Shown: one piece after another, positions 1 through 23,689 of the stretch
How the letters are laid out: each line of letters starts with the position of its first letter
Position numbering within the stretch: the stretch's first letter is position 1
NCBI GenBank assembly: GCA_973895155.1
Contig: OZ316896.1
Coordinates: 3,944,738-4,008,737 of the forward strand
Length of the DNA stretch: 64,000 nt
Direction of reading: 5' to 3'
Origin: Marsupella aquatica
Lineage: Eukaryota > Plantae > Marchantiophyta
The notes under the pieces: generated by a model
What the model was told of the DNA's origin: nothing
Seen by the model: only the letters and a program-made list of their open reading frames with translations
The model's database searches: none
Translations under genes and position numbers: made by a program

Positions 1-74
1 CAACGGGAGAGGCTACAATAATAACCACATGGTGTGGTTTTGCCCCTATCTCGCTAGTAGCACGAAATAACCCC

Positions 75-2300
75 TCAGAATGAGCAATTTGGCGGACGCA
101 AATCTCCCATTGATGAGGGATCAAAATAAATCAAGCTCGCAAGGTTCTTGTCTTCACGTATGATACAGTCTGCAAACCCAGCATTTTGTATATCCTGCAG
201 GGATCGCAATTTCAGCCTCTCACCGACCGGCCGCACTAGTTGGTTTCCTTGACTATCAACTGATTTCTGTATTCCTTCCACCAACCTGTAGAATATAGGG
301 TCGATCTCCTTCAACAAATTATCATTACTAATATTTACATTTAAGCACTTCTTCAGATAACCACTCAACGCATCTCTCAACTGCTTCAGCACCATCTTGT
401 CGAGCTTAAAGCGATCAATCATTCCTTTGACCCGCAATTTCCGCGCTGAATCTGTCAGACTTTTCAGCTCCGTCCGGGTGGATGTTTCCCCATTGAGTTT
501 ACTCAATAATAAAATCTCAAACTCAACTTTCATCTTCTTCTTTATACAGAATTGCTCCAAACTCATGCTGGTCGTTGACAACACTCGAGCCTCAGAGGAC
601 TTCCTCGCCTTCCCAGATTTCACTTTGATGCTTTGGTTTTTGAGTATAGACAGTCTTCCGCTCAACATATATTCCGCTGCCTTTCGAAGAACCGAGTCTG
701 AGCACCCTTGACAAGAACGGAACGTCTTCTTTAGAAGATGATAAGCACATGGATTATCCGCAATTTTGACGGTGTCCCTCTGTAAAATTCTGTTGTAAAT
801 TACAAGCTCTCCTGTCCTTGATAGTTCATAGACCTCCATCCACTTCTTGAATGTTTCGTCCTCCATTGTAAAGAGAAACGGAGCCAATTCTCCAAATTTC
901 ATCATTTCGTTCTTCCCCATTTGAGCCCATGGGCAGACAAAACTCGTAGCTCTCATAAATACCTGAAAAACAATGGAAACATGACAATTCTAAGCTTGAC
1001 GCGACCATTCGCGTGACAAAAGTTTATACGATAATGTGATCGAAGAGGGTTATTTATATACCTTCCAATTTGGATGACGATAATGTGATCCAGGCCACCC
1101 AAATGAGTTCCAGATATTACGACACTGTCGTACAATGGTGAGAAACTGTCCTTCTTCCATTGATGTTTGATGACAGTGGTTCAAAGCTTTTGATAATCCC
1201 ATCAAATGAACATTATTGTCGTTGTTGAGCGTTGCCCAAAACATTATAGCTTCTACAGTACCGCAAGCGTCTCGTACAACTTGGCTGACTTTGTCGTCCT
1301 CTCTCAGCAATTTGTACGCCATTATTGTGTGCTGGCCTTCGAGTATCCAGAAATGACTGGTCATAATGTCCTCCTCCTTTGGCGATGAATCGTAGGGCAT
1401 CCCATTGTAGTCGGGATCTCTGTCGGCCTCCGACTGAACCCACTTCACAGGGACTAAAAAGCAGCATTGCTTCTCGAACTTTATAGCCGAATGAGAGAGG
1501 AGTGAATTCTTTAGCCTATCTGTGTAATCCTGATTCCACTCTCGGCACTTGATGTGGTCCGGTGCAAGATGACAACGTGATGTCTCAACAAAAAATGACT
1601 TGCTGTTAAATATATTCACAGCACTATATTCTTTGAGGAAAGAATCAAACAGAGCCCCGACATTCGCTGAGGTAATTACTTTCGGAAGATTCTCCGCCGA
1701 GTATATTTCAACCTTGCTCACTGGCGGGGCCTTTCCCAAGCAAAATCCCTGGTTGAAAGGAACTCTCTGGAACTCAAGTACGTCAATAATGTATTGACAA
1801 ATCAAATCTCCCGTTGATGCCTCTGGATCGGAAGGATATCCCACACTAGTAACCTTTTCCAAGGCGTGCCTTGCACCTAGAAGATCATCGATTATGGGTT
1901 GATTGAAGGTTACATATTGCGTTCGATCCAAACAAATGCTTATTTTGTCTTCCTGCTGGTCGTCGCTGACTAGCAGAACCAATCCCTCTGTACACTCTTT
2001 AACTTTCATGTTCTTCTCAAAGAAACACCCGAGAATTTTTGATCTCTCCAAAACTGTAGCTTTATCATTTCTTGCCACCACAAGACGGACAGCCCCATTG
2101 CGAACGACTATTCCAAAATCGGATATCTCAGTCGATTCAAAGAGATGGATACTCTTTGTCTCCGTTGTTCTCTCTCTGATTGACTTTCCTCGATATGCAA
2201 GTATGGATGTCTCTGCGGGAGTCATTTTTGTCTTGGCTTTCTTTCGAGAAGCAGCTTTAGACGAGTCTCTTTTCCGCTTTGAGGTTCCGATAGGATCCAT
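75..2300 (-). CDS. ParB/Sulfiredoxin-fold protein, two exons (2300-1062, 962-75); possibly continues past a frameshift beyond the window start
   Basis: ORF 1050-2300 shows the ParB/Srx pattern CREWNQDYTDRLKNSL...FWILEGQHTIMAYKLL...VEAIMF...LSKALN. A 99-nt GT..AG intron (1061-963; AAG|GTATAT...TTTTTCAG|GTA) joins it in phase 0 to ORF 75-956 (NWK|VFMRATS). The N-terminus is NLS-like (KRKR, RKKAK). Confidence 0.7.
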
Positions 2301-2375
2301 TCTTAAATAGACAAATATTGAAAGTTAAACATTTATTATAAAATACTAACACGCACATGGTCGCGTCGTGCCGAA

Positions 2376-2906
2376 TTACATTTTAGGAACATTTATCCTG
2401 ACCCAATCTTCTCGCTCATCTTCATCTAACCAAAACCAAAGGTTCCTAAATGTGTCAAGTTCAGATCCTTCAAATCCACCCAAAATGTCCAGCGGCGGGA
2501 GAGTTCTGATGGATTCTGTAAATCTTAATGCTACACTCCGTGAAGTCAAATGCCTTCGAAGCGATTCATATCCTGGTCTATCAGTGAAGTCGTAAGCTAC
2601 CAAGGTGACCGTCGCCCATGTACTACTATAAGTAACTATGTGGCACCACTTCTTACTGACTGTTCGAATGGCGATCAAGTCCATGACCCGATTTTTAATC
2701 GCAGTATTCGACAAATTCCCAAGACAGTGGAAAAACTCTTTGACTAATGGCCAAATATATTTCTCGACAATATCATCCGGAAGACCGGGTATCAGGTCTT
2801 CAGCTTGACTCCATATCATGTTTCGGTTCATAACCTTTGCACGTGCAATGCGCTCCATCATCATTTGACAATGAGATTTTTGATTCATGTCAAAGGACTG
2901 CAGCAT
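2376..2906 (-). CDS. F-box-like protein, paralog 1
   Basis: LIPGLPDDIVEKYIWPLV...IRTVSKKWCHIV is a plant F-box signature with an internal insertion. Intronless, 176 aa. Confidence 0.7.
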   Translation of the reverse strand: MLQSFDMNQKSHCQMMMERIARAKVMNRNMIWSQAEDLIPGLPDDIVEKYIWPLVKEFFHCLGNLSNTAIKNRVMDLIAIRTVSKKWCHIVTYSSTWATVTLVAYDFTDRPGYESLRRHLTSRSVALRFTESIRTLPPLDILGGFEGSELDTFRNLWFWLDEDEREDWVRINVPKM

Positions 2907-2940
2907 AATATGGAAAAGATTAAGAACAAGACCCTATCCA

Positions 2941-3507
2941 TTAAGAACTGGGACCACCGAGATTCTGAGAAAATCTACCAAACCTTTCGATTAGGACATC
3001 TCGTTCTTCCTCATCTAAATTCCTATATTTGTTTGTAAACAATGCGATTTCATCAGAAGTAGTAGTCCCAAGAACAGATATTTCTGGAAGCATAGAAATA
3101 TCCTGTCGAATAACTCGATAGACTGAGTCAAACTCCAACTCCTCAGTTTCGGGTATGTCGTAAAGAGCATCATTTGCGACATCGACAATCCGGTTTGCTT
3201 GTTTGAGGATAGTCCATAACCTTGTATTTGTAACTAAAAAGTTCCACTTCTTGCTACAAGCTCCAAGCCGAATAAGGTCTCGGACCCTATTGATAACCAA
3301 ATCGTTATCGAGGTGTCGATATCCACGCAATCTTTCAATTGAAATAAAGTGTTCGTAGAGTATTGGCCAAATGTTTGAAATGACCAAAACATCTGGTATT
3401 CCTCCAATGAGACTAGAGGAGGTTTCATCCAGCGTATCCCATATTGTTTTCTGTTTCTTTTCATGAGATGAAAGGAAATCTCGAGTCTCATTCAAAAGTT
3501 GGCTCAT
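2941..3507 (-). CDS. F-box-like protein, paralog 2
   Basis: LIGGIPDVLVISNIWPIL...LGACSKKWNFLV. The C-terminal LPEISVLG..EIALF..LDEEER motif is shared with paralog 1. Confidence 0.68.
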   Translation of the reverse strand: MSQLLNETRDFLSSHEKKQKTIWDTLDETSSSLIGGIPDVLVISNIWPILYEHFISIERLRGYRHLDNDLVINRVRDLIRLGACSKKWNFLVTNTRLWTILKQANRIVDVANDALYDIPETEELEFDSVYRVIRQDISMLPEISVLGTTTSDEIALFTNKYRNLDEEERDVLIERFGRFSQNLGGPSS

Positions 3508-3572
3508 CCTGCTTTTATCATATCACAAAACATTGTTAGAAGACATACGACGCGCTTCGTCACGTAAGTTAA

Positions 3573-4124
3573 CTAGAATTCCTTAAAAGCGTAGATGTCA
3601 CCCTCAAGGTATCCAACTTCGTGGCATCTGACTGTAAATTTCCATTTTTCAAGAGGGTGAAGAGCATTGTAAGTCTTCGTGAAGAGTTCCCTAAGATCTC
3701 TGGACATTGACCCCATGAATTTAATTCTTGGGTATTTCTGGAATAAACTTTGAACTGTCGATGAGAGAGACTCATTTCCGATCGGTTTAGTAGGATTTCC
3801 TGGGAAAGCCAAATCTAATAAACTCAACTTGATTACACCCAGAATATAGGTATTCCCAACAAGGTGGCGCCATCTGCGACACACCGAAGATAGTCCTACA
3901 AACTCATCCAATTCCTTTATTGAGAAATTTCCTGCATTAGCCGAGGAATTAAAAGTCTCCTGGATCCGAGGCCATATCAATTCCGCGACAATGAAATCTG
4001 GAAGTCCAGGTAGTAGTGTTTCAACAAATACAGAATATCCCGCAAGTAGACCATCTTGGCTTCTGTCCAAAACGTCAAATATTGGGCATAGATATCTGAA
4101 GCTCTCTAGACCAGGTTCGCCCAT
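3573..4124 (-). CDS. F-box-like protein, paralog 3
   Basis: LLPGLPDFIVAELIWPRI...LSSVCRRWRHLV. The C-terminal YPRIKFMG..LRELF motif aligns with paralogs 1 and 2. Confidence 0.68.
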   Translation of the reverse strand: MGEPGLESFRYLCPIFDVLDRSQDGLLAGYSVFVETLLPGLPDFIVAELIWPRIQETFNSSANAGNFSIKELDEFVGLSSVCRRWRHLVGNTYILGVIKLSLLDLAFPGNPTKPIGNESLSSTVQSLFQKYPRIKFMGSMSRDLRELFTKTYNALHPLEKWKFTVRCHEVGYLEGDIYAFKEF

Positions 4125-4263
4125 GACTCTTTTCAGCCAAATGATATATCCCAGAGATTATATTTCACGCGACTGGTCGCGTCTACAAATCAGAATGCAT
4201 AAACAATTCTTTGAGAGACTGATTTTTTCGGGTCACAACGTGAAATCATAAATATTGCTTCGT

Positions 4264-4850
4264 CCTCTAACAGAACCAGTCAATGAGAGAGCAACCTCAG
4301 ACGCGACTGGTCGCGTCAATTGAACCTAAATAACTATATCCACTGAACCTTCTGCGGAGATTTGGATATGGTACGCGCTCAGTAAATCTATCCAGTTTCC
4401 TTCTCACACGCGATTGGTCGCATCAACTGGTCCTAAAAGGAACCCTACCTCCTCTAACAGAACCAGTCAATGAGAGCTCTACCTCAGACGCGACTGGTCG
4501 CGTCAACTGAACCTAAACAACTATATCCACTGAACTTTCCTTGTGGAGATTTGGATATGGTATGCGCTCAGTAAATCTATCCAGTTTCCTTCTCACACGC
4601 GACTGGTCACGTCAACTGGTCCTAAAAGGAACCTTACCTCCTCTAACAGAACCAGTCAATGAGAGAGCAACCTCAGACGCGACTGGTCGCGTCAACTGAA
4701 CCTAAACAACTATATCCACTGAACCTTCTATGGAGATTTGGATATGGTACGCGCTCAGTAAATCTATCTAGTTTCCTTCTCACACGCGACTGGTCGCGTC
4801 AACTGGTTCTAAAAGGAACCTCACAGTATTTTCACACGACTGGTCGCGTC
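4264..4850. repeat. Tandem repeat, ~188-bp unit x3, two 18-bp palindromes per unit
   Basis: CCTCTAACAGAACCAGTCAATGAGAG starts at 4264, 4451 and 4640. ACGCGACTGGTCGCGT variants at ~4300, 4408, 4487, 4596, 4676, 4783, 4833. Confidence 0.95.
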
Positions 4851-7384
4851 AACAGCTGAAACAACTTTTGGACAATAGGATAATACAGTGATACAACTGT
4901 GATTACTGACCCGTACGGACAAGGAAATCCGAGGAAGCATAATCATTCATTTGTATTCATTCATGAACTTTACAATAATTCAGATGTTTGAGCTCTGTCA
5001 TTGTGAAACTATTATATATTAGAAGTTTAGAGAATGATCCAGCTAAGATGATTCAATTTAGCAGTCTACTGGTTGTATTCGTCAATTAAAGGATTCAATT
5101 TAATGAGATTCACATAACATGAGAGTTTATATGATTAAATTCACAGCGTGCAAGTTTGTAATGACTTACTTAAGACGATTCAGGTTGTATTTTAATTAGT
5201 GAGTTTGTATGATTCACACATATTTGAGTTTACAAACAAACCGCATTATGAAAATTGTGCTTAACAATCAAGAGAAATTTTAGCAAACCACAATCAACAC
5301 CAGCAGAAAATGTAGAAATTACACCTGAATTCTGAAAAATTGATGTAATCGCCTGAGAGATTGACGTCCAAGCACTTGAACACCTTGCTGCGGCATTCCA
5401 GAAAGTAAATATAAGTTTGAAGATATTAATATGCTAAGCAACAACAACACAGCTTCTATACTTCTATACATAGAGCTTCGCTGCCACCAATTGAATAACA
5501 TGTGCTTAATGCTAAGGAGCTCATTATGTTGAGTTAAAAAGATTCTTTCAGAAGTACAATCAAAGCTGTGGATAGGCAAACTGAGCATGAATAAAAGCGC
5601 ACTAAACCTGAAGATTCAAAGAGGTGAAACAAACCAGAATGCTGAATGGAAGGAGCTAAAACAAGCTGCCAAAAAGTAGTTCGAGCTGCTGAAACACGTT
5701 GATCGAGCTGATATGAGCTTAAAATTGGCTGACACGAGCTGATACAAGCACTCCCAAAAAGCTAGCTGCAACGAACTAGCAAACTAGAAGTGAATACGAG
5801 CTGTAAATGCGAGCTGCAATGCGCCAACGAGCTCCTGGTCGAAACGATGGACAACTACTAAGAGTTGCAATGCGCCGACAAGCACCTGACCACAACGAAC
5901 GAGCTGCAACGACAAAAATAAAATCCAGGGCAGGAGCGAGAGCGAGAGCGACGAGAGCAGGCGCGCAAAAGTCTAGGGAGCGAGAAACAACAACAATGAA
6001 CAATGAACTCGAGACCGTGGGTGCCGACACTAAGGAAGGACTAATTAGGGTATTGTTTTAGCATAACCCTAATAACAGCCTAGCGACAGGAAGGTTCCAG
6101 ATGATCTCCGTACACTCCACCATCGACTGAACAAACTATGCAATCGTGAAAAAAAGATTATCGGATTCTTTTTGATTTTCCGTACTAAAGGAGATTTCTA
6201 TTTGATGGCCAATTTGAAATTTAAATCGGTAATTATGCAACTACAAAAGATTATTAGTGGGGACCCCCGGATCCGGATCCGTATCTTCACTATATCTGCC
6301 AATTCAAATCCAAAATGTGAACGAACAACAACTTTCTCACGATCGTTCCATCACGTAGTGGAGGCAAACTTCAAAATCATTCCATTTTGGTAGTGGAGAC
6401 CGTCGGATCCGGATCCGTACTCCACTCTCTATCTTGCCAATTCAAACCCTTACTCTAAACAACGTAAAACAATTCTCACGGTCGGGGAGAACCGATATTC
6501 AAAATCAATCCTGTACAATGATTCTCACAACTGGAGACTCAACCAATTTTCAAAATCAAAATCGAGTCCAGATGAACACATCCTCCATGGAGTCAATAGA
6601 CTGATCTCATTGCTCACGGATCATTCTTCATTTTCAGTTTCTCCTGACCAGGATACTAGCTGGGCTCTCAGTGGAGGCTGATCCAAGGCACATTTGAGGT
6701 GGAGCAGATTGGATCATTCGACTATTCCAGTCGGAGGCGGAGCTCATTCAAGCAACGCTGGCGCAGTTCTTGTTGTATCACCTTCAATCTTGGGGAGAGC
6801 ACATCCGATCAAGTGGGAGAGTTGCGACGAAGTGAGACGACAAACATTTAGAACCTCCATAGTCTACCTCATTCATCGAAGCATTCTAGCGGACCAACAA
6901 AGAGCGGCTATTCTGAAATCACAGTCTAGTCGAGGATTTTGATCTTGATATGATCAACAAGTTGTCATTCTCTGGTGGTGGGATTCGATCACGATACTCA
7001 AGGAAATTGGAGTTCGAAGGAGGAGGCTTAGTTGGCTGGGACGAGGAGGGTACGCTTGAAGGAAGAGGCTTGGCTGGGAGGAGGGTTTCCGCCAACATCG
7101 GAGGGTTGCCGCCAACATTGCTTAGACCACACGCAACTGAATAACTTGTAAGTATCAATCAGCATTAATTCCACAATAAATGAGGAGAGTAGTTGCCTTA
7201 AATCACGCATTCAATGCATGAATTGAGTCAATGAAGTTATGGTCCAATTTCTCACTCCGAGTTTGATCAATCCGTGTTTCAAGTCCAATACAGAAGCAAT
7301 GTATCAGAAGTACTAGTAGAGGATCCGAATGAATTCTCTAGTCTAAAATTGTATGGCGTACGCGTATAGTTGTCCGTACGTTTT

Positions 7385-8335
7385 GCTATTGTTTATTGTA
7401 GTCGACGGCCTAGCAAAACGAAACGTAATCGAGGTCCATTTTTCAGATCTTCCTGATCTCAACTTGTTAGTAGGATGACCTGTTTTTTGGTTACACATGC
7501 AGTTCGTCACGCGCACAGTCGCGTGAACCAATTTATCTCGTGTCTTTTGATATTGTTTATTGTAGTCGACAGCCTAGCGAATTGGCCAGAAATCTATTTT
7601 AAAACCAACGTCTTCGTTTCATCATGCGCACGGTCGCGTTAATGTTTTAGAGGTCAGCAAAAGTTCTGCACTCTTAGATGTAATCGCCCTTTATTTCAGA
7701 GATCTTCCTGATCTCAACTTGTTAGTAGGATGACCTGTTTTTTGGTTACACATGTAGTTCATCACGCGCACAGTCGCATGAACCAATTTATCTCGTGTCT
7801 TTTGATAATGTTTATTGTAGTCGAAAGCCTAGAGAATTGGCCAGAAATCTATTTTGAAACCGAGTTCTGATTCACACGACCGGTCGCGTTAATGTTTTAG
7901 AGGTCAGCGAAAGCTCTGCACTCTTAGACGTAATCGCCCTTTATTTCTCAGATCTTTCTGATCTCAACTTGTTAGTAGGATGACCTGTTTTTTGGGTTAC
8001 ACGTGTAGTTCATCACGCGCACAGTCGCGTGAACCAATTTATCTTGATATTGTTTATTGTAGTCGACTGCCCAGCGAATTGGCCAGAAATATATTTTAAA
8101 ACCGAGGTCTTTGTTTCATCACGCGCCCGGTCGCGTTAATGTTTTAGAGGTCAGCGAAAGCTCTGCACTCTTAGACGTAATCGCCCTTTATTTCTCAGAT
8201 CTGCCTGATCTCAACTTGTTAGTAGGATGACCTATTTTTGGTTACACATGTAGTTCATCATGCGCATAGTCGCGTGAACCAATTTATCTCAGGTCTTTTT
8301 GATATTGTTTATTGTAGTCGACAGCCTAGCGAATT
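7385..8335. repeat. Tandem repeat, ~250-bp unit x~4, with degenerate palindromes
   Basis: AGATCT(T/G)(C/T)CTGATCTCAACTTGTTAGTAGGATGACC recurs at ~7445, 7699, 7950, 8197. CACGCGCACAGTCGCGTG-type motifs occur about twice per unit. Confidence 0.95.
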
Positions 8336-8508
8336 GTCAGTCAGAGGAATCTTGATTTTTCCTTGATTGCAAAAATGGTTACATCGATCCCGAAGGACTT
8401 CGGATGTGGAATCCATATCCACTAGCACTATCCAGGAATTTAAGCTACACAGTATCTATAACAAGTTCTAACTTGAACTACTCTTGAATCTGTAGTTCTA
8501 ATCTTCGA

Positions 8509-9081
8509 CTACTCAAAATATTGTTGACTTCGATCGAGTAAGTCATTCCAAGATGAAGGGATCCACTCATCGGTGTCTGGTGTGGATTCCCTTGAATCCA
8601 TAAATTCTTCCTTTGCCCAAGTCCTAACGTCCATAGATTTTCTCGGCTTGCTCTTTCTGTAATACAAATCAGAATCTTTGTTCATCTCTAATTGCCTTTT
8701 CTTCGGTGCGTCCACTTTCTTGGCCTCCTTCTTGACTGTCTCAGCGTCTGCTGCTGCTTCCCCCGAAATGGATTCGACGCATGCTCTGGCCTTCAACTTC
8801 TCCCCCCTCAAAACGGATTCCACGAGGGCTTTGCCCTTTAACTTCTCCCCTGATGCCATCTTTGTAGTCATCTCTGTCGGATTGGTGTCCATCTGATCTT
8901 CCATCGACAAATGTGGCGAACAATGTCCTCTCTCACAAAACATTTGACCCGATTTAGTCACCGTAAACATTATATTACATCGCTGACACATTCTGTAAGG
9001 AGTACCCCGAATTTGATACGTCAAACCTTCTGAATCGTCCGTCGAAACATCCTCATTCTTTGAGCTCAGCGGAGTAGTCAT
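8509..9081 (-). CDS. Small Zn-ribbon-like protein of unknown function (element passenger)
   Basis: 190-aa ATG ORF with CQRC-x13-CERGHC and a basic C-terminal patch (PKKRQ, YRKSKPRK). Confidence 0.5.
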   Translation of the reverse strand: MTTPLSSKNEDVSTDDSEGLTYQIRGTPYRMCQRCNIMFTVTKSGQMFCERGHCSPHLSMEDQMDTNPTEMTTKMASGEKLKGKALVESVLRGEKLKARACVESISGEAAADAETVKKEAKKVDAPKKRQLEMNKDSDLYYRKSKPRKSMDVRTWAKEEFMDSRESTPDTDEWIPSSWNDLLDRSQQYFE

Positions 9082-9264
9082 CGCCCTTCAAACAAGAGAT
9101 GTTGACCGAGACTAAGAATTGGAAATGAGAGAGCTGATGTACGAATAGATTATCCAGTAGCCAGAAAGTGGAATGCATGGGGGAATGAGCAATAGAGATC
9201 ATCTCAATGCTTTATACTGTTTAGTCTCCACTAGTCATTGTACATAGTGGTTTCTAGAAGAGGG

Positions 9265-10100
9265 TGCGCGTTTGACTGGCGCGTATTAGAATTGGCGGGA
9301 AGTTCAGTTGTCCGGTGTCCACTCATTGGTAAACTGGTACTGTCCACCCATTTTTCCTGAGTGGAGTTGAAATGATTTTTCGTAATCGATTGTAGTCGTT
9401 CTCATTCACTTGAAATGACTGACGGACCATGCATTATCTTTACCGGTATGTGTGATGCCTTTAGATCCGTAATTGTATCTTCCTGTCTCGCGCGTAATCG
9501 TATCTTACTTATGAAGTACCAATTACGAGCTAGAGTTTGGGCCTAGCCTTCTAGCTTCTACGTCGTAGACCCTGTACCCTCTGACTAAGGTCACGCGACA
9601 TGCCTTTAGATCCGTAATTGTATCTTCCTGTCTCACGCGCAATCGTATCTTACTTATGAAGTACCAAGTACGAGCTAGAGTTTGGGCCTAGCCTTCTAGC
9701 TTCTACGTCGTAGACCCTGTTATCCCTACACCCTCTGACTAAGGTCACGCGACTAGTCGCGTGCAGGGCAGTGCATTGACTACATTCTGCCTACTTATTG
9801 ACAGTTGTGACAGGACAATGCAGTTCACGGACGTTTTACTGGCGCTTATTAGCACTACTGTCCTCAGTAGTTACTGACTGTCCACTCATTTGTTTTGAGT
9901 GGATGTGAAATGATTGATCGTAATCGATTGTGGTCATTCTCATTCATTTGACATGACTGACGGACCATGCATAGTCTGTTGCCGGTATGTGTGGTACCTC
10001 TAGGGTCACGCGACCAGTCGCGTGCAGCGCAGTGCATTGACTACATTCTGCTTATTGACCGACGTGACAGGACAGTGCAGTGAAATTGACGGACGTGACA
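9265..10100. repeat. Nested direct duplications in the divergent intergenic region upstream of the transposase
   Basis: TGCCTTTAGATCCGTAATTG at 9456 and 9601 (145-bp unit); ~9270-9452 resembles ~9830-9992; 9745-9830 resembles 10005-10095. Palindromes at 9746 and 10007. Confidence 0.9.
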
Positions 10101-10129
10101 GGACTATACGCTTACAGTGATATTCTCTG

Positions 10130-13100
10130 ATGTGCAGGATCATAATTATTATGGTGACATCGATAGTCTGGATCAGGGAAGGCGGACAAGTAATTATAGG
10201 CATACGTGAGAAACAGGTTGGAAAAGGTCGCGTGATAAGTCTTGATCCTTCCAGGGTTTGTCACAATGTTCCTCTTGGGGCGGACAGAGTTCTTCTTCTA
10301 TTGGAGGAAGTTTTTGATGAGACCATTCTATGCGAAGATGGCAAAATTTTGAAGGACATGATTGGGGGTTACCTTGTATGGGAAAGGAATCAGCTTTTTT
10401 GAGCTCCCATGGAATCAGAGGATGTGTTTGGCACTGTTGGTGATGATCAAGATCCAGTCAATCAAAATTCTGATGGGAACAACCATAATGAGAGTCGGTC
10501 TGGTGTGGAAGTAGTTTTACCAAAGGCCTTGTGGATGGCATGCCTGTAAAGGTGGTGGATGAGAACAAGTTGATATTTGCAGTGGCAACTATACATGTTC
10601 TAGATCCTATAGTCAAGCTTGGGGATGTCACCCTTGGGAATACACATGTGGGAATTCTGATCAACGATTTTGTCGAGGGAGCTACCATAGATCATCTGAA
10701 GCATAGAGATTGCTTAAAAGCTTGGTCGATGGACCAACTCATTGCCAAGGATGGCAACTTGTTGTCTTTCCACAACATCAGGCAAGCTGTGGGAGGGAAC
10801 ACATCTCCAACAAGTGGCAAGCAGTCCTACGTCCATAAAAGTAGGAAAAGAAAGAGTCCATCTTCCCAGACATCTAGAAGAGACACATCTTTGGCACGTC
10901 AAGATGTGTTGTTGATAAACACTAAGGACTGTTGTAGTGAACATTGTTGCCAATATTTGGACCGCAACTTGGCTATGGAAATTAGGCAAAAGTGGTGGTC
11001 AAAATCTTTTGCGGAGCGCAAGGAGGAGGAAATCAAGGCTATTAAAAATACAATACACTTGGGTACTGGAGAAAGGATTCTAGCAGTGGAGGGCAAAGTA
11101 TTGTGCTTGGAGGCATGGAGAATCATTCATTCAAGAGGAAAGACTCAATTTTATGCCTTCAAGAAGACTGTGATGGCTGGAATGAACATAGGTACCCATG
11201 GTAATGCTGGAAAAAGGCGTATGTCCGAGAAAGTATCTCAAGCGTTCATGTCAATGAAAGAGATTATTGAGGAGGCAGCTGATCATCATCCAGCCAAGTT
11301 GAGAACCATGGCAGATAATACAAGGATGGTTTTGAGGGAATTGCCAACAAATCTTACTTGGGAGAATATTAGAAACAGGGTTAATGTTGTCAACCAGGAG
11401 GCTGGTTTTCCTCCAATTTCCCAACCCACCTTGAGTCATCTACATCACATGTATTTCAGGGAGTTCTCACGTCACAAAAAGGGCAACAACTTTTCAAAGT
11501 GTACAACTTGTAGTGAGTTGCTTCAACGGAAAGCAAACCTTACAGGAGCTAAGGAAGAGTTAGAGGGCCTAAGGCGTGACGAGGAGGAACATCACCAAGA
11601 CCACACATAACAAAGAATGTGCTATCATACCTGGAGATATGAGTCCATCCATCGTCCAAAGGAAGTGTTATGCCTTATTCATGATAAGATGGATCATTCA
11701 AAGACAGCTCTCCCAAGAATGCCCTTCAATCCTAAGCATGTGGATGGTGCCCAAAAGTTCCCAATTACTGTCACTGGTATCCTTACTCATGGTCATGGTC
11801 CCAAGGCCATAGCCCAATATCATGTTGGAGTGTGGCCAGGTGATGTCAACATCACTATTGGGTCAATTGATTCAATACTAAGGATGTTGGAAAACCCAAA
11901 TCCAATGATCAAATCACTTGTGGAGGGGCCAGACTCAACAAGTCTTTTTAAAGACCTCCTTTTTGGGAGAGCAGATATCTTGGAGGCAAGTGTCCTTAGA
12001 GCATTTGAGGATGACATTGCCTACATCTCAAGCCTAGGTACTTTACTCACAATCCTTTAATTTATTATTATTTAATAATATAAGCTCACACACACTAACA
12101 CTCTACTTTGTGTAGTTGTTGCTCCTCTTAGCCAAGGTTTCATTAATAGGGTTTAAACCCTAAACCCTAAATTGGGGTTTAGGGTCTGACTAGGGTTTTG
12201 TTTAAAAGCATTCTGAGATTGTTACATTGTGATGTAGCACCTGAGGCACCAAAGTTCAGGCCCCTTCCACGAGTATTGAAGCTACAACTGGATAATTGTG
12301 CCTCAGACAACAAGAACAGATATATGATGGCTTATTTGTCATTGTTGACGGCAAGGGAGGTGTTTGAAGAGGTTCATCTTGGTTTTATGGTGGTTGGGCA
12401 TACTCATGAGGACATTGACGGTATGTTCGGGCATTTTTCAGAGTCTATGATGCATAACCCCACATACTCATTGCCTGAGTTAATGTCCTTGTTCATGAGA
12501 GCAAGGACACCCAATGCAGTCCCATATTTTCTACAGGAGGTCCCAGATTTCAAAAACTACTTAGCTCCATTCATGTTGAAGGGCCCTGAGGCATTGGTGG
12601 GGCATTTAAAACCCAGGCTGTTTAGGTTCTATGTTCGTCATGATAGTATGCCATGCTTCCAATACAAAATGAAGTCAACTGATCAGGGATGGTTACCCAA
12701 GGAAGGTATTGAAATGTGGTCATGGAAAGATGACAAAAGTCCTCACATCCCAATTGGGGTGCCCAAACGGCTACCAATGATGGAGTTGAAAATGCTTCCT
12801 GAAGTGCTGACAGGGTTGAAGAAGCATGTGTCATTCTTTGAGTTTATTCTAAAGCGAACAAAAGAGGAAGAACCAAAGCGACGTTGGACAACTCTCATCA
12901 ATTATTGGAATGACATTGTAGATACTCTACAGGGTGAGCAGGTGCAATATGAACCTGAAGGTGCACACAACTTGGAATACGGGTTTTGGCCTTTATCAAT
13001 ATGGAGAGAGCACGTTCCACCAGAATATCGAAATGTGGCATGTGAGTTGGAGGCAACAGTGGATTATGTGGGACCAACAAAAGATAAACCTCCTGAGAGT

Positions 13101-13526
13101 TTTAACCCTAGGGTTGATGTTGTGAAGGGCTGTTATGTGTTGGTATGGCCGGACGACTCAGACCTGGATGTTTATCCCGTCCATATGGGGTTAGTTGTTA
13201 CAGATGTGGTAGAAGGACCAGTGAATGAACAAAACCTTCTTACTCATGTATGTGGCGTTGAGTGGTTTAGACCATTTATGGCAAAGAAGCAACGTGGTCA
13301 ATCAGACTGGCAGCCCAGAGAGCGGTGGGCAGATTCTTGGGATAAGAAATGGGAACGTGATCCATCTCCAATATACAAGGAAGCTGAGACAATAGATGTT
13401 TCCTCTGCCTTGTGGTGTTTCAAAGCACGCAAAGGACCAATGACAGGGCTGGTAGGAATTCCAAAGAATGTTGCTGTCAAGGCAAGAGACTATCTCTTGA
13501 CATGCATAGCAAGTGACAAATCCTAG
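10130..13526 (+). pseudogene. Disrupted DDD/E transposase, Sola-like/DUF7869-type, with two N-terminal Tnp1/En/Spm-like domains
   Basis: Motifs CCSEHCC, FSKCTTC, LIHDKMDHSK, LQLDNCASDNKN and VGHTHEDIDGMFG. N-terminal GRVISLDP..HNVPLG..GGYLVW and ATIHVLDP..GDVTLG..KAW repeats. Lesions: TGA at 10400-10402, a frame change near 10500, in-frame TAA at 11608-11610. A phase-1 intron 12038-12237 joins the last two ORFs. Confidence 0.75.
12146..12199. repeat. Plant telomere-like repeats in both orientations inside the transposase intron
   Basis: TAGGGTTTAAACCCTAAACCCTAAATTGGGGTTTAGGGTCTGACTAGGGTTTT. Confidence 0.75.
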
Positions 13527-13619
13527 ACAGTAATGAAGCATGTAGTTTAGCATACAGTTTAAAAGGCAACTCAGAATAGTAGTAGCTAGAGAACTCAAGT
13601 TTAGACAAGTTTTATCGTC

Positions 13620-14195
13620 TAAGTTAGTTAGTTGGTTAGTTTATTTAAGATATAATATTAGTTAGTGGGCCCTTAGTTTGGTGATATTAAGGCATGATAT
13701 TATTGACATTCAAATGAATGTCCAGTAGACATTGTAATATACAACAATCCTATTAATAAATAATAATTATAGTTACACCCTCAAGTGAACTCAACTTTCA
13801 ATGATTTCTGATTTTATATGGTTCCATGCCTGATTGAGTCAAAGCAATAGAAACTAACTAATTAAAGGGTGATACTATAATTGTAGGTCACGCACCCTGG
13901 TGCGTGTCAATCTTTTTTGTATTCAACCCTATAGTAATTAAATAGACAAGTTAGTTAGTTGGTTAGTTTATTTAAGATATAATATTAGTTAGTGGGCCCT
14001 TAGTTTGGTGATATTAAGGCATGATATTATTGACATTCAAATGAATGTCCAGTAGATATTGTAATATACAACAATCCTATTAATTGTTGTAAATAAACTA
14101 ATTAATTAAAGGGTGGTACTTACTATGATTGTAGGTCACGCACCCTGGTGCGTGTCAATCTTTTTTGTATTCAACCCTATAATAATTAAATAGAC
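13620..14195. repeat. AT-rich direct duplications downstream of the transposase
   Basis: ~13620-13755 matches ~13947-14082; ~13880-13945 matches ~14128-14195. Each of the latter pair carries CACGCACCCTGGTGCGTG. Confidence 0.9.
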
Positions 14196-16541
14196 AATTG
14201 AAACAATGAATGATAGTTTAATTAAGGATTTGTGCATGGATCAAGAGGTACTTGATGTCATTTAGTGATGCATTGTTATAAAGATCTTGCAACAAAACAT
14301 TTGAAGTTTTTGACTATCCCACCAAATGTTAAAGAGGTTGATCATTCATTAACTAATAATATTTAGATAAAATTGGAATTAATCTAATACTTCAGTATTC
14401 CTTAAATTGGGGTTAAGTTGTAATTATACAACACACTGCCAAAGAAAAAAGCTTCAAACTCAGAGAAAAGACTTTAAAGGCAGGTGACCCAAGAAAGGGG
14501 AGAAAAAAAGGAAACTCCAGGATGACCATGGCCCAAAGGACTGAAAGTTGCACAGTACAACAAAGGAACTAAAGCCCTACTCACCAGTAAACTTAAAAGA
14601 CTGGTAAAGCTGAGGAGTAAACTACACAGGAGGGTCCCAAGGAAGCATTTATTTAGAGTCCCTATTCCCAACGGGAACCCAACAGCCTCAGCCATTCCTA
14701 ATTAAAGAGTGAATGCCTGAGCCAGGCTCTATAGTGCAGAAAAACTGGGAAATAAGGCTGCGTCTCTACAAAAAATATCCTAGGCTGCATGGTTGCACAA
14801 CCATCTCTTTGGGCTTGGGACAGTCCCCAGGGATCGTTATGTAAGGGACACCTTACATGATTGAGCCCCCAAAACTTCCAAAGCTAAACAAATCCCCAAG
14901 TGAAGGTAGCCATCTGCATACCCCTCCTTCTCCTTGACCAGGGCTGCCTTGGCTGATAATTAGTATTACTTTATGTATACAGTAATGCCCTGGTGAAGAG
15001 ACATGATGAGCCATAACTCCCCCAAAATGAGAGCTTTAGCTTGAGTTTTGAGGGGCTATTGTTGCCCAGAATGCCCTTGCAATAGGGCATTACTGAACAC
15101 ACTTTAAGTTCTAAGAGATTCACGCTTAAAGGTCTAAGATATTCAATCTTAAGTTTTTGGTCCAAGTCTATACTATGCACTTTTCTCAATAGAAGCACCA
15201 AAATTTACTAACGGAAAGTCAATAAGAACATTAAGACAGTTACCCAAGAGGTAGAAGCCCAAGCGTGTGATGAAAGAAGAAGCTAAAATGCCAAGAGTTT
15301 GCTAGGTTTTCTTCTGTTTTGTATGGTAAAATTGTGAGTTACGTATGCTTAAATTGATTGATGGGGTCATTGCATAAGTCCTAGTATTCAAAGCAAGGTG
15401 TGTATTGTATAAAATATATTATGCTACATATGAAAAACAAAGCCAAACCTAACTAAAGTCTTTAAGTACACAGGCCACAATGCCCTGGAAAAATTGCTTT
15501 AGCTCAGGGGCTACTACTGCTGATATTTCAATATATATATACCTGTGCGTTGCACAAAATAAGTAGTTGTGCAAAAGATGTCGTTGCATAAAAGATGTCC
15601 ATGTGAGAAATGTGTCATAGCACAATACGATGGTATTGAAAAAGATGTTGCATAAACAATTTATTTGCATAAGGATGTCTTTGAGTGAAAGATTTCTTTG
15701 CATAAAAGATGTTATTAAAAGATGGCATGGAAGAAGTCATTGAAGAAAAGGTCGAGGTGCCATAGAGGCAAGGTGACCAGATCCATGGACGCATGATGGC
15801 AACTGTGAGGTCCAAATAGGGCCATGCCACTATTCACTTTTTTCCTCCTCTCCCCCCTCCTTCTCTCCTCCCCCTCCCTAGTACATAAGGGAGGCAGTGG
15901 GCGAGGGCAAGGCCCAAGGAAAGGCAAGTGGGCATAGGGGGCAGGTAAGAGGTGGACAGACTGTGGGTCCCCCTTGCTATGTTCTCTTTCCCAGAGGCAT
16001 TTGGTCCATCTTTCTCCCACCCCTCGTGCTCCTCGAGAAAAAAAAAACCCATCTGATGTGGTTCAAGCTACTATAAATGTGGATATTTTTGGTCAAAACA
16101 AGTGGTAAAAACAGTGTATGGTGCCAATGGGTTGTAAGGAAATTAAACTAATCCCACTAGGAAGGCAAAAGGCTATTGGGGCAAAAGAGAAACCTCCTTG
16201 CAAACCTGTATGTTGGGTGTCTGATGCAAACATGACATTAGCTATGGACAGAAAACCTTAAAACCGGCAATAACCATAAATAACGCTATCAATGTTAGGA
16301 AGACCTTAATAAGGGGTCTACCTCAAAATTTGATGGACTAAGTTAAGGTTACCATTAGACTACCAAATTCATAATCCATATTAAGTCTTTGTCATCAAGA
16401 TTGGTCATACAATAACCATAAATAATGCTATGTTAAGAAGATCTTAATAAGGGGTCTACCTCAAAATTTGATGGACTAAGATATGGTTACCAACAGAAAA
16501 AACATAAAAATTTTAGGATCACCAAATTCATAATCCATATT

Positions 16542-17452: not shown

Positions 17453-17974
17453 TCTTTGTTCACTTCGGCAAACATTGTCGTTTCTCTTCGAAGCTCGAGA
17501 AAGACAATCAGACCTAGTCCGCATACCCTGACACCGCTCGAGATCAGCAGGGTAGTCCTTCGAGCTGTGGTTTGTTTGCTGAGGGGAAGCCCTGCAGACC
17601 AGCAGGTTTTCTTGGATCATGTATGTACGTCCAATGTCTCGTGCCCACTTCTCAAATAATCGTGGAAGGCAAATTGGTGGAAGTTTTGAAAGATTTGTAA
17701 GTGAATCCATCCTGCTTCTCCCGAAGGCTTGATTCGGAATTGGTATCCAATTACTGTCATGACATTACACGAGAATGTCAGGAGATCGTTTGGTTTTGAT
17801 ACTAGTTCCTCCTGAGAGATTGCCGGAGCTTTTGTCTCGAGGAGGTCTGGTGCCTAGCTGGTGGAGCTAAATAGACACTCTGTTTTGGAGAGAACGACAT
17901 TCTCATGAACAATCAAAGGAAGTGTTTCTAATTTCTATTAGTGGAGTAGCCAATGTGTCACGCGGCGTGTTCTG

Positions 17975-18529
17975 ATGGCTTTGTTGAGTTCTTCTTACCC
18001 TTTCAGTCGAAGCAGAGCTCTTCATGAAAGTACACAATTCTATTCCGTCAAGAATTCTATGCTATCCTTTGAGTCTTCTCCTGAGAGATTTTCGCTGCGC
18101 TCCGTTGCATCCCTCAGAGGATTAGGTCAGGCAGGTGTGATACGAGGCATTATCAGCGGAGCGCCTGCTCCAGGACTGAGTACTATGGCGCTTCAAGGAG
18201 GGGAAAGGGCTCCTCGACGTTTGGTTGATTTTGTAAGAGCTATTCCTAAAATATCGAGAGTGTATTTCAAAAGCCCTTTCAGGAGAGCTCTCTATGGAGG
18301 AATTTCTCTCCTGGGCGGATTTTTTGTTGCACATACGTTAACGCTTTCCTTGGGGGCATTGGGGTTAAATGACGTTGTTGCAGCTGCTGTCTCTCTGGTC
18401 GTTGCGGAGTACATCACTAAGTTTTATCATACTCGATCACAAATGACATTTATCGTCGCCCTTGTTAACAATTTCAAGATCGGATTCACGTATGGTTTGT
18501 TCATTGATGCCTTCAAGATAGCCAGTTGA
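17975..18529 (+). CDS. ycf20: Ycf20-like (DUF565) chloroplast-targeted protein, NPQ6-like
   Basis: Ser-rich transit-peptide-like N-terminus, then RRLVD..IPKISRVYFKSPFRRALYGGISLLGGF...NNFKIGFTYGLFIDAFKIAS, the typical plant DUF565 C-terminus. Confidence 0.88.
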   Translation: MALLSSSYPFSRSRALHESTQFYSVKNSMLSFESSPERFSLRSVASLRGLGQAGVIRGIISGAPAPGLSTMALQGGERAPRRLVDFVRAIPKISRVYFKSPFRRALYGGISLLGGFFVAHTLTLSLGALGLNDVVAAAVSLVVAEYITKFYHTRSQMTFIVALVNNFKIGFTYGLFIDAFKIAS

Positions 18530-18650: not shown

Positions 18651-18713
18651 CTTTTTCAATGCTGACCTCGTCTACCTTGACTCGGAAGGTAGACGAGGTC
18701 AGCATTGAAAAAG
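18651..18713. repeat. Perfect 28-bp inverted repeat with 7-nt loop
   Basis: CTTTTTCAATGCTGACCTCGTCTACCTT-gactcgg-AAGGTAGACGAGGTCAGCATTGAAAAAG. Confidence 0.97.
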
Positions 18714-19692: not shown

Positions 19693-22216
19693 TCAAGATT
19701 TGAGATGCGTAGCAGTAGCGGTCTTGACATAGTCGTGTGCCTGTGCTTCGCTCTTGACTTGGGGCGTCGCACTCTTCTCACCCCTTAGCAGGGACGCCAG
19801 CAACATTAACTCCCCCTGCCATTCATTTAGACTAGTCTCCTTTGTATCAGTTTTGATGGGAATGTCGAAAGTTTTCGTGGCGGCCACAGTGGAAGATGGC
19901 GCGGCTGGAAGGGTCACTGTGCATGCAGAAGACACAGTCAACAACATCTTAAAGTTAGAAATCCGATACCATTTGGAGTTTCAAGTAGAAGAAGCGAGTA
20001 AACCCAGAGCTGATGTAAATTGCACTACTGGGTTTATTGAACAACTTTAACTATTTTAATCGGCAGCGTTCCACCATGCTGTACGAACTGCTGTGCAAAA
20101 TTTGAGGCAAGCCCATGATTCTATTGCTGCAGAGCATACTCGGAAATTGCAACAACAAACTTAGAAGTTGTGGGAGGGAAGGTCCATTCATCTAAGGCCT
20201 GGGTTGAGTCCGGTACAGACCTGGGCAATCGGTCCTTGGTGTAGTTCTGGTGTTGAGAACTCCGTCAAAAGTGCCAGCCCAAGCATCCCTCGCTGTCAAG
20301 AAATTTGGAAGATTGAACAATTTCTTGACTGTTGCGGAAATAGAAGAGTGCTCGTACTGTGAGGTCGGCGTTGGGCCTGTTGCCTTGTGGACCACTGCAC
20401 AACGAAAGCGCAACCAGCCATGATGAAATCCAATCTTTTTCAATTCAATTCCAAAAGTCTCGTCTGTGGGTACTCTGCACGTGCTATTGATTTTGCAGTA
20501 TAAATCTTTACCCCGGAACTGTGGCAGCACCATATCAATTAGAAGACTTGCAATAAGAATGGCACGAGAACTTGGATATTCTTAAGGAGACAGAACTGTC
20601 TCCAAGCACCGCCCTGTGAGCTCGTCCGAATCTATCCATAGTGTTGTTAAATTGACCATAATTCTCATTCTTTTCTTTTCATTAAGAAATAGCGGGAAAG
20701 GAAAAAGATTGAGTACATTAAGAGATATTGGACTAAAGTGGAAATCTAGAGTGCGACGAATTCTCCTAGAAACTGTTTAGCTCACATCCACCCCGTTATT
20801 GCAAGAATTTAAGCCATTTCAGGGTCGGAAGTACAGAATATCAGCTGAATTCAAGATTTCCTTCGTTCAAGTAATCCTTTTGTTACTACAATCATTCAAT
20901 CCAATGCACACCTATTAATACATTGAATCAGGTTATCGATGGAGAGAGTATTGGAAAGGCTAATTAGACAGATGCAGAATTCTCACTGTAGTGAGTATAA
21001 TAATAGGGAATTATCCCACGGGAGGAAATAGGACATTGGACGAGTTCAATGCAATGATACTCAAGTAGATATATCACATAATTATAACGAGAAAGGTGAC
21101 TTGAGGCGTTGTAAGCAATAGACAGCAAAAGGACCTGAAGAAAGCTGGCGAAAGAACTTTACCTACGCCTTTCTCAATCCAAGGGGAGACAATGATGGTG
21201 GGAATCCGGACACCAAGTCGGTCGAAGTTGAAGTAGTCTGGTGCGGGGCCCTTGATGCCATCCGGGTTGGGAACACCGGTTACAGGAGTGGGCACATGAT
21301 CGTAGAATCCACCATGCTCATCGTAGGTGATTACCCACACCATTTCATTCCACTGGGGGCTCTGACGCAGGATTTCGTAGATCTGCTTGAGAAGTTTCTC
21401 TCCATTGGTGACGTCGTGCGGCGGGTGGTTGTCGTTTGCTGGCAGCAGTGGCGGCAGATCGAAGTAACGCTGCTCGATCACGGTGTAGTTTGGGAGCTTG
21501 CCCGCTGCGGCATCGTTTTTGAAGTCCAGATCAAATGCTCTGAAATTGTCGATGTACTTTGGATTCCGAAGCCTACTGTAAAAGAGTGTGGCCGGTATGT
21601 TCTGGTAATAGATCCCGAACGTCAGCCCTGCCTCCTCGATGTTCTCAAAGATGGTCTTCTGAGGATTCCCCTCGATGAGGTCAATCGTGACGTTGCTGAT
21701 CAGCCCGTGTGAAGTGGCGGAGTGCACATAGAACCGGTTTGGTTGAGTGGAGCAAGGTAGCGAGGCGAACCATTTATCGAACACTGCAAACTCCGTAGCA
21801 AGGGCCACTGTGATGGGAATCGATTCTGGTTTGAATGCACTCATCACCTGTGCAGCGAACCCGGGTTTCAAGGCCTCTGCCGTCTGCGCAAAGCCATTCA
21901 TCGGAGGAGGATTGAGAGAGGTATCGGTGCCTCCGAACACCTGCGTCTTAATGACGTCGTAGCCATGGTCGGGGTCCGCCTCTGTCACATAAGGCTCAGC
22001 GTCTGTAACGTACACCTTCTGAGAGGTGGGATCAGAGACCTTAATGAGGTTGTACTCGTTTCCCTTCAGTCCATCGACATCGGGATGAACGCGGTTCAGG
22101 AATCCCAGAACATTGTCGAACGACCTGTTCTCCATCACCAAGACCACCACCGTCTTGATTTTCCCAGCCATCTCAACTTTTTGGACCGGTGTAGTGCTGA
22201 AACAGCTATTTCCCAT
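19693..22216 (-). CDS. NPC: Non-specific phospholipase C (phosphoesterase family), 3 exons: 22216-21163, 20394-20221, 19916-19693
   Basis: Motifs [66 protein letters not shown] and [12 protein letters not shown]. Both introns are phase 1 with GT..AG ends and preserve the frame. Confidence 0.93.
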
Positions 22217-23689
22217 GTAAGTTCGTGAAACTATGGGAAACGCCTAATAATCAGCTATTTCAAAATAGTGCCCGTCCAGTCTACAAATGAGTTACCAATC
22301 CTGGTACGAGCTGGAGGGATACTTCCCCGAGGCCGTTCATCAATCCGAAGCCTTGAGACTCAATCATACACAATGCGATAGCTCCTTTAAATAGGATCGC
22401 AATGCGGAGGGAGGGGCCACAGCTACAGTCGCTGCACCGTTGCAAATGGTGCATCCCATTATGAAATTAGAATGTAGCGGCCCGAGTTTCCGACGTTGCC
22501 TGCCCTGGTGGTGAATCAGGCACAGAAGCTCTGCACAACCTCTGTTACAGATCAGGAAGGGACATCATTTTCGCTCATGCAAGGAAGCGAGAAAGCTGCA
22601 GCACGAGCTGGCTTGAGACTTTCTCGGACTGACTCGGACTCGGACCATTGACGATGCTGACCAGAGGAAGGACGATTTGGAGGCATACAGGACCGAGCGT
22701 TATCTACAGGATCCCGGAGGAATATGAGTACTGCATTGAGAGATGAATTGCTCAATCGGTCATCCGATTGACGCGGAGTGCAAGCGAAGATAAGGACGAT
22801 AGCACGTTTTCTCAAATCACGAATGCATGATCGCTGTTGACTGCGCTCTCTAGCAGGACAGGTGCGCTGGTCTTGCGTAGCTACTTTAATACGGACCTTC
22901 ACCCCGGCCTGGATTCCATGTTTTCTAATCCATTTCACTGCAGTCAAAGAAAATCAGTCATCCAATCAATTCCCCCCGTGAAAAGCTAATGCCGTAACTA
23001 CACTACAGTGGTCTCCAATCCCGCACAACGATTCCCTATTTAAAGAGCTGGTGGGTTCCCACACGCAACAGTCCTGGTTTCCAATTTTTAAATCTCCTTA
23101 AGATCAGCTCGAAGACTCATCGTAACCCGAGCTTCAGCTCTTCCAATGAAAACTCATGATCTTAACCCCAGCTTCAGCTCTTGCAACGACTGTACAAGCT
23201 TCTCTTCAATCTGATCTGTCTGATCTGCGACACAATTTCACGTCGAGGAAACTGACTTCGTTGGCATTCTCCTGCTTGTCACGAAAACAATACCTGCTGT
23301 AGAATTTGCCGCAATTGGAAGACACTACAGGCGTGACTGTGCTTTTGATTATTCACGAGGCGATGGTCAAATTCATGAGGAATCCTGCTGAGCCGAACTG
23401 TATATAGATGAATCGTTCACGTCAGCATTGAAGGGTCCAGAACTCGAGATTGGAGAATGGAATGGAGATTGAAGAATCCACGAAGAATGTCCGTTGGAAA
23501 TAATTATGCATCTTTGCGGTTTTAGGGGGCCCACGAAAAGGTCATGAGACCAAAGATTGCACCGGCGCGCTTTGAACTCGGGTCCTATGCGAGCTTCACC
23601 GGTAGCAAAAGCCCCGCCTATCTACCGACACGTGCCGAGCTCCACACTGTCTCCGGGGTTTGGACTTGCCAGACAAATAGAGGCTTTAG

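Follow-up and report, generated by a model that had tools for sequence, protein, structure and literature searches.

Sequence-specific self-activation of transposons is already known from flowering plants, through VANC, TnpA and AtMu1. Published passages on VANC21 place its motifs in introns and in intergenic and terminal non-coding DNA, multiplied in tandem repeats and accompanied by local loss of CG methylation (PMC5735166), and passages on Spm TnpA and AtMu1 describe CG methylation as lost near their sites while the element body remains methylated (bioRxiv 10.64898/2026.08.24.746577). Among bacterial systems, KorB of plasmid RK2 is described in excerpts as a repressor that also partitions with ParA, and its 16-bp palindromic operator, OB, lies near promoters (PMC11790492, PMC12704722). 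Here we analyze a stretch of 64,000 nucleotides (the window) from the liverwort Marsupella aquatica (GenBank assembly GCA_973895155.1, contig OZ316896.1, positions 3,944,738 to 4,008,737 of the forward strand), the left-hand part of which holds a decayed, cargo-carrying DUF7869 DNA transposon with relatives in liverworts, together with 22 copies of a CpG-rich palindrome. We propose, with a probability of about 0.4, that these palindromes are operators bound by a dimer of the element's own ParB-fold protein, which would activate promoters of the element and prevent its DNA methylation. Transposon-encoded regulators with clustered motifs, of the VANDAL/VANC and Spm/TnpA type, are the closest eukaryotic precedent.

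A palindrome repeated across the element

A preliminary description of the window had reported about 20 copies of an 18-bp palindrome, and 22 were found exactly at the positions it gave, plus a half copy at 9592. Searching the 64-kb window with the 18-bp word CACGCGACNNGTCGCGTG, up to 3 mismatches being allowed, returned 17 matches against 0.03 expected. A symmetric matrix built from 11 training sites ranked 22 sites at 14.1-30.5 bits, and the best site after them reached 9.0 bits. When each training site was left out in turn, nothing beyond position 14300 scored as high as any of the 11, the margin being slim for the copy at 3549, already described as weak (8.1 versus 7.8 for the best outside site). 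Array units account for 14 of the 22 copies, and 4 further copies lie within duplicated stretches. Retaining one unit per array or duplication (12.9 kb) left 12 sites; 300 shuffles gave 0.29 on average and never more than 2. Among 66 pairs of flanks clear similarity was seen only for 9746/10007, two other pairs lying at the 95% null level. None of the 22 copies falls in coding sequence, nor does any of the 12 representative sites tested (12/12), whereas 46% of start positions would be non-coding. The palindrome thus is, as had been claimed, a non-coding motif set in unrelated flanks and not the product of one duplication. Its reported confinement to the element holds insofar as no motif site was found in the remaining 49.7 kb of the window; neither end of the element was located, the left one lying beyond the window edge. 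No fragments of the element were found elsewhere in the window, and an Rfam search gave a single match, judged to be due to chance.

What is conserved among the copies is a shorter palindromic core, ACGC(G/A)-N6-(C/T)GCGT, the full 18-mer being matched by just 2 of the 22. The pattern ACG-N10-CGT is present without exception in the 11 training sites. Over spacers of 0-20, all 14 exact cores showed a spacer of 6, and with one mismatch allowed this spacer was found in 12 sites and each other spacer in 0-3. Across the 12 sites, positions 2-6 can pair in 10-12 cases, and positions 7, 8 and 9 in 8, 6 and 2, respectively. The centres of the half-sites are 11 bp apart, one helical turn. Because the spacing is fixed and the letters are conserved, with variability in the inner pairing and not in the outer half-sites, this geometry would suit a protein that contacts one face of the helix as a dimer better than a hairpin, in agreement, at the level of sequence, with the dimeric binder suggested before. 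The two variant copies at 13889 and 14137 descend from one site; both have lost their inner CpGs symmetrically and retained the outer ones.

Four start codons have the motif ahead of them, and it recurs in no fewer than 11 non-coding contexts that are unrelated to one another (Table 1). Perfect palindromes occupy the divergent promoter region, at 9746 and 10007, and sites lie 105-126 nt upstream of the transposase ATG; no motif precedes F-box gene 1. The three F-box paralogues are only 24-32% identical to one another, and the two preceded by the motif share just 24%; the site has therefore persisted, or arisen anew, through a long period. A second repeated word, with CGGATCC, at 6269-6286 and 6405-6421, is found 9 times in collapsed non-coding DNA versus 2 elsewhere in the window.

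The ParB-fold protein and the genes around it

The suggestion that the candidate binder is a ParB-fold protein encoded by the element is supported by the structure model of a homologue. Spliced, the gene yields a product of 708 aa, and the splice junction is borne out by Calypogeia proteins; the intron appears to be conserved, since one and the same WxV word lies close to where 12 of the 35 rows of the alignment stop. The gene continues past the left edge of the window and has a probable, weakly supported frameshift near 120-130. Its family comprises 34 representatives at E <= 0.001, of which 4 of the 20 looked up are named, all from Calypogeia; with one cluster member these make 5 proteins on 5 Calypogeia fissa contigs, as would be expected of a dispersed mobile family. 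The model of the window's own exon 1 is confident in its N-terminal part alone, which is PH-like at Z ~5, and unconfident in the ParB region. P0091, a homologue from Calypogeia that shares 31.6% identity with the window protein, was modelled with AlphaFold2 from a 35-row alignment (predicted local distance difference test, pLDDT, 77.5), and the top four rows of its Foldseek search against PDB were Noc and ParB. The model aligns with ParB at Z 10.3 over 94 residues (root mean square deviation, rmsd, 2.4) and, over residues 243-532, loosely with KorB (Z 8.6, rmsd 6.1, 185 residues), its helical region following KorB and pNOB8 ParB just as loosely (rmsd ~6). The ParB fold of P0091 also emerged from a wide structure search, with viral ParB rows of BFVD at E 2e-4, and the Atlas clusters DUF3723 and ParB_N match the ParB domain of the window protein (DUF3723 feature score 0.95). 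Pfam DUF3723 gave no match for the protein, sequence profiles against PDB did not find ParB, and the PHROG ParB rows reached just E 0.1-0.3. A C-terminal amino-methyltransferase, considered on account of the word LIYFDP, was rejected: there was no family match, and the Calypogeia homologue has no DPP-like residues.

The remaining genes presumably belong to the same element. The transposase matches Pfam DUF7869 (E 1e-36), those of its relatives that are named come from Calypogeia fissa (58-65% identity), and in a tree the window row falls within a group of 10 rows containing both Calypogeia proteins; the position of its intron is common to locus L001. Its two stops and frame break mark this copy as dead. 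No relatives, fold lead or DNA-binding family were found for its N-terminal 370 residues, and neither a family match nor a DNA-binding family for the small Cys/His protein. By eye, segment 10151-10399 of the transposase resembles a Transposase_23 (TnpA-type) pattern, without Pfam support, and its intron carries short telomere-type repeats (CCCTAAA, TTTAGGG) at 12151-12185. The four genes of 75-4124 on the minus strand run head to tail with gaps of 65, 34 and 75 nt, a layout that is virus-like for a plant; AG immediately precedes two of the ATGs in this block, and one alternatively spliced transcript is possible. The element may also resemble Sola DNA transposons, a group marked by its own RNase H profile, terminal inverted repeats and a 4-bp target site duplication.

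Table 1. Coordinates of the genes, palindrome copies and arrays in the motif-bearing part of the window
Feature	Position	Strand	Remarks
ParB-fold gene	75..2300	-	Predicted PH-like N-terminal domain, ParB/Srx-fold domain and helical region; intron 1061-963
Palindrome copy	998..1015		In ParB-fold gene intron, acceptor 35 nt further on
Palindrome copy	2350..2367		49 nt 5' of ParB-fold ATG (2300), followed by TATA-like stretch
F-box-like gene 1	2376..2906	-	E 0.003, under Pfam cut-off
F-box-like gene 2	2941..3507	-	E 0.002
Weak palindrome copy	3549..3566		41 nt 5' of F-box 2 ATG (3507)
F-box-like gene 3	3573..4124	-	E 0.017
Palindrome copy	4166..4183		41 nt 5' of F-box 3 ATG (4124)
Tandem array 1	4263..4850		189-bp unit x3, two copies in each, plus 4833
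Array 1 copies	4300, 4407, 4487, 4596, 4676, 4783, 4833		
Tandem array 2	7438..8336		~255-bp unit x3.6; shares just the motif with array 1
Array 2 copies	7508, 7623, 7763, 7873, 8014, 8120, 8259		
Small Cys/His gene	8509..9081	-	CxxC...CxxxHC cluster, possible zinc ribbon
Divergent promoter region, Cys/His gene versus transposase	9455..10024		145-bp duplication, half site 9592
DUF7869 transposase	10130..13526	+	Intron 12038-12237; stops 10400 and 11608; frame break ~10530-10550
Variant copies 13889 and 14137	13889..14154		Duplicated 3' stretch

Between the arrays, 6500-7130 on the minus strand holds broken coding-like frames, possibly the remains of a cargo gene under the control of array 2. 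To the right of the element, 17942-18529 and 21074-22243 are, as we assume from inspection by eye, host-like plant genes for a ycf20-like membrane protein and a non-specific phospholipase C, and a perfect 28-bp inverted repeat with a 7-nt gap lies at 18651-18713. A CpG-depleted open reading frame (ORF) for a reverse transcriptase of the long interspersed nuclear element (LINE) type occupies 48467-50959 on the minus strand. Three RNase H-like ORFs, a SET-like and a MYND-like ORF, fungus-like by eye and undepleted in CpG, lie within 34550-63385.

A possible methylation footprint and competing explanations

According to our proposal, a dimer of the ParB-fold protein would bind the palindrome through the helical region that follows its ParB domain, as KorB binds OB. 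Once bound, it would activate neighbouring promoters of the element, as VANC and TnpA do, and would keep the genes of the element free of DNA methylation; in the window the palindromes would now be decaying because this copy is dead. That the predicted binder is encoded by the element we consider probable, and that the ParB-fold protein is itself both activator and anti-silencer, a possibility somewhat short of even odds. The ratio of observed to expected CpG (o/e) provides a proxy for past methylation. Most of 1-10150 has a ratio of 0.8-0.95, like the host-like genes of the window, whereas the transposase body has 0.21-0.32 and the LINE 0.36; the change point was placed at 10231, about 200 bp beyond the last strong site. 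For the matching stretch of transposase, CpG o/e is 0.16 in the window versus 0.64 in L001, and in the depleted interval 13527-14200 four of the five CpGs fall within two motif copies.

Several observations weigh against this proposal. CG or CHG transitions make up 9 of the 11 deviations among the 14 array copies, and motif CpGs in the arrays are no better kept than others (4/52 versus 5/29, p 0.27, a count that misses three motif transitions), which together indicate that the sites were once methylated. Such decay would fit a dead copy lacking its activator, but also a history in which the sites had no protection at any time. Moreover, the drop in CpG falls where the coding sequence of the transposase begins. 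An apparent protection of motif CpGs in the arrays (6/55 versus 13/46, p 0.04) was discarded, minority CpG columns having biased the count, and was gone on recount. As regards the protein, no PDB row in the Foldseek search with P0091 was as good as E 0.001, pLDDT is 50-85 in the model for the helical stretch that follows the ParB domain, in which any helix-turn-helix (HTH) is putative, and the arginine of GxxR is replaced by Thr or Ser (GQHT or GQHS; compare the DGQHR motif) in 18 of 18 motif-bearing proteins, the position being assigned by motif. To judge from the model, the protein behaves like other ParB-fold proteins yet, lacking the GxxR that helps to define the CTP-switch family, does not qualify as a member of it. 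No related loci with flanks were found for the ParB-fold gene in metagenome, viral or prokaryote contigs, nor related loci of the element in viral contigs or plasmids, and one related transposase locus (1449 bp, coding only) is without the motif and uninformative; the linkage of the ParB-fold gene to the transposase hence rests on the shared motif, because a further copy of the element with its flanks did not turn up. Finally, transposases and TnpA-type proteins are established binders of such motifs (bioRxiv 2026.08.24.746577).

This last point leads to a rather unlikely but serious alternative, in which another protein of the element, through the N-terminal 370 residues of the transposase or as the Cys/His protein, binds the palindrome and the ParB-fold gene is ordinary cargo. 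The transposase gene is flanked by perfect copies on its 5' side and variants on its 3' side, and both TnpA and the AtMu1 transposase are described as binding clustered cognate motifs with local loss of methylation (bioRxiv 2026.08.24.746577). Their sites are terminal, however, whereas 18 of the 22 sites here are internal, around cargo genes, and neither candidate showed a DNA-binding family. The promoter-proximal placement, with TATA-like stretches adjoining two copies, would also be explained if a host transcription factor read CGCG-type half-sites as a dimer and the element had gathered a promoter element, for instance for germline expression. CGCG-core host motifs do exist, such as the CAMTA box, but the rest of the window is devoid of sites despite several host-like genes, and we know of no plant factor with such an inverted pair at 6-bp spacing. 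We hold host control to be quite unlikely.

Still less probable is that the palindrome works through nucleic-acid structure, by forming a hairpin or cruciform, or that it serves as a processing signal in a polycistronic, alternatively spliced RNA of the tightly packed left-hand genes. Such a signal would agree with the short gaps (34-75 nt) and the AG before two ATGs in the left-hand block, and of 9 sites that were folded, 6 gave DNA hairpins with z < -2.5. In the 13889 and 4300 types, 8/8 pairs are kept despite altered letters. Nonetheless, the spacer is invariant and it is letters, not pairing, that are conserved; sites 2350 and 3549 fold no better than shuffles (z 0.53 and -0.11), and the array and 3' copies are away from splice sites. 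We hold it highly improbable that the sites load a nucleotide-gated clamp that partitions or tethers an excised circular element, a truly parS-like role to which the ParB/Noc/KorB fold and a palindrome near the size of the 16-bp OB might point (PMC11790492). A DDE-type nuclear transposon has no known need for partition. Of the two labels in the preliminary description, operator-like fits better and parS-like, in the sense of partition, is not supported, because no ParA was found among the window ORFs (the left part of the element lying beyond the window), sites sit 41-49 nt before starts and the GxxR arginine is replaced. The abundance of array units and duplicated stretches might be taken as a neutral by-product of local duplications, but this explanation has been largely refuted by the excess that survives collapsing and by the unrelated flanks, and retains only a marginal probability.

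The proposed ParB-fold operator system could also be extended into an unlikely KorB-style regulon, in which the protein loads on the operators throughout the element and, by binding or by sliding, holds 10 kb of cargo active and free of methylation, host silencing factors being removed by the F-box cargo. If true, this would amount to a sequence-specific ParB/operator pair at work on plant chromatin, and the same job could be suggested for DUF3723 in Starships. Binding itself, if true, would represent an independent invention of anti-silencing in early-diverging land plants, give a function to a eukaryotic ParB-fold family and supply a compact protein-site pair for targeted epigenome work. Since candidate protein and precise candidate site come paired, a single binding assay can test both.

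Comparison with known systems

Within the limits of our literature coverage, nothing was found on DUF7869, on DUF3723 with ParB, or on an element pairing a ParB-fold protein with an operator. A survey of the ParB fold gives sulfiredoxin as its usual eukaryotic form, and the words 'plant', 'transpos' and 'fung' are absent from its text, although its supplements may list the family. ParB folds can have other roles: one phage ParB, in which no DNA-binding domain is obvious, is reported to activate a pyrimidine dioxygenase, its NTP residues being dispensable. The fold can thus be put to use in DNA modification and does not have to contact DNA itself (PMC13229309). DUF3723 is described as a conserved cargo of fungal Starships, and the Atlas match noted above invites comparison with this conserved cargo of large eukaryotic mobile elements (bioRxiv 10.1101/2021.12.13.472469). 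Starships, however, use a tyrosine recombinase, the passages seen mention no operator motif, and the window lacks Pfam DUF3723 (bioRxiv 10.1101/2021.12.13.472469); no DUF3435 tyrosine recombinase captain was found in the window, beyond which the left part of the element extends, and a DDE-type gene is present instead.

With KorB/OB, ParB/parS and Noc/NBS the locus would share a ParB-fold protein on a mobile element and a palindromic operator near promoters, the structural match being that of the homologue model (Z 8.6-10.3). Those systems, as far as the passages describe them, are bacterial, with an intact GxxR and a CTP switch, whereas the window gene adds a PH-like domain and an intron (PMC11790492, PMC12704722). 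The likeness to Spm TnpA and AtMu1 consists in clustered, CpG-containing cognate motifs and, as the CpG proxy may suggest, in methylation lost near the sites but kept in the element body, and the difference in their terminal sites, a tandem-HTH binder of transposase origin and a CACTA or MULE transposase (bioRxiv 10.64898/2026.08.24.746577); Transposase_21/23/24 had no Pfam match in the window ORF pieces.

The comparison with VANDAL/VANC reaches furthest in layout: an element-specific motif is spread over introns, intergenic DNA and tandem repeats, cargo genes adjoin the transposase, and there is a local CG signature, for which CpG depletion stands as proxy here (PMC5735166). The components differ. 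The VANC21 motif is given as 9 bp, AT-rich, non-palindromic and in one orientation, and that of the window is a CpG-rich palindrome of 16-18 bp; VANDAL combines a MULE transposase with VANC proteins bearing DUF1985/DUF287, in place of DUF7869 and a ParB-fold candidate (PMC5735166). No Pfam match to a MULE transposase family was seen in the window ORFs, nor to DUF1985/DUF287 in 11 and 8 ORF pieces, the left part of the element being outside the window. We regard the element as a member of none of VANDAL, Spm and parABS, and it is in its layout that it resembles VANDAL and Spm.

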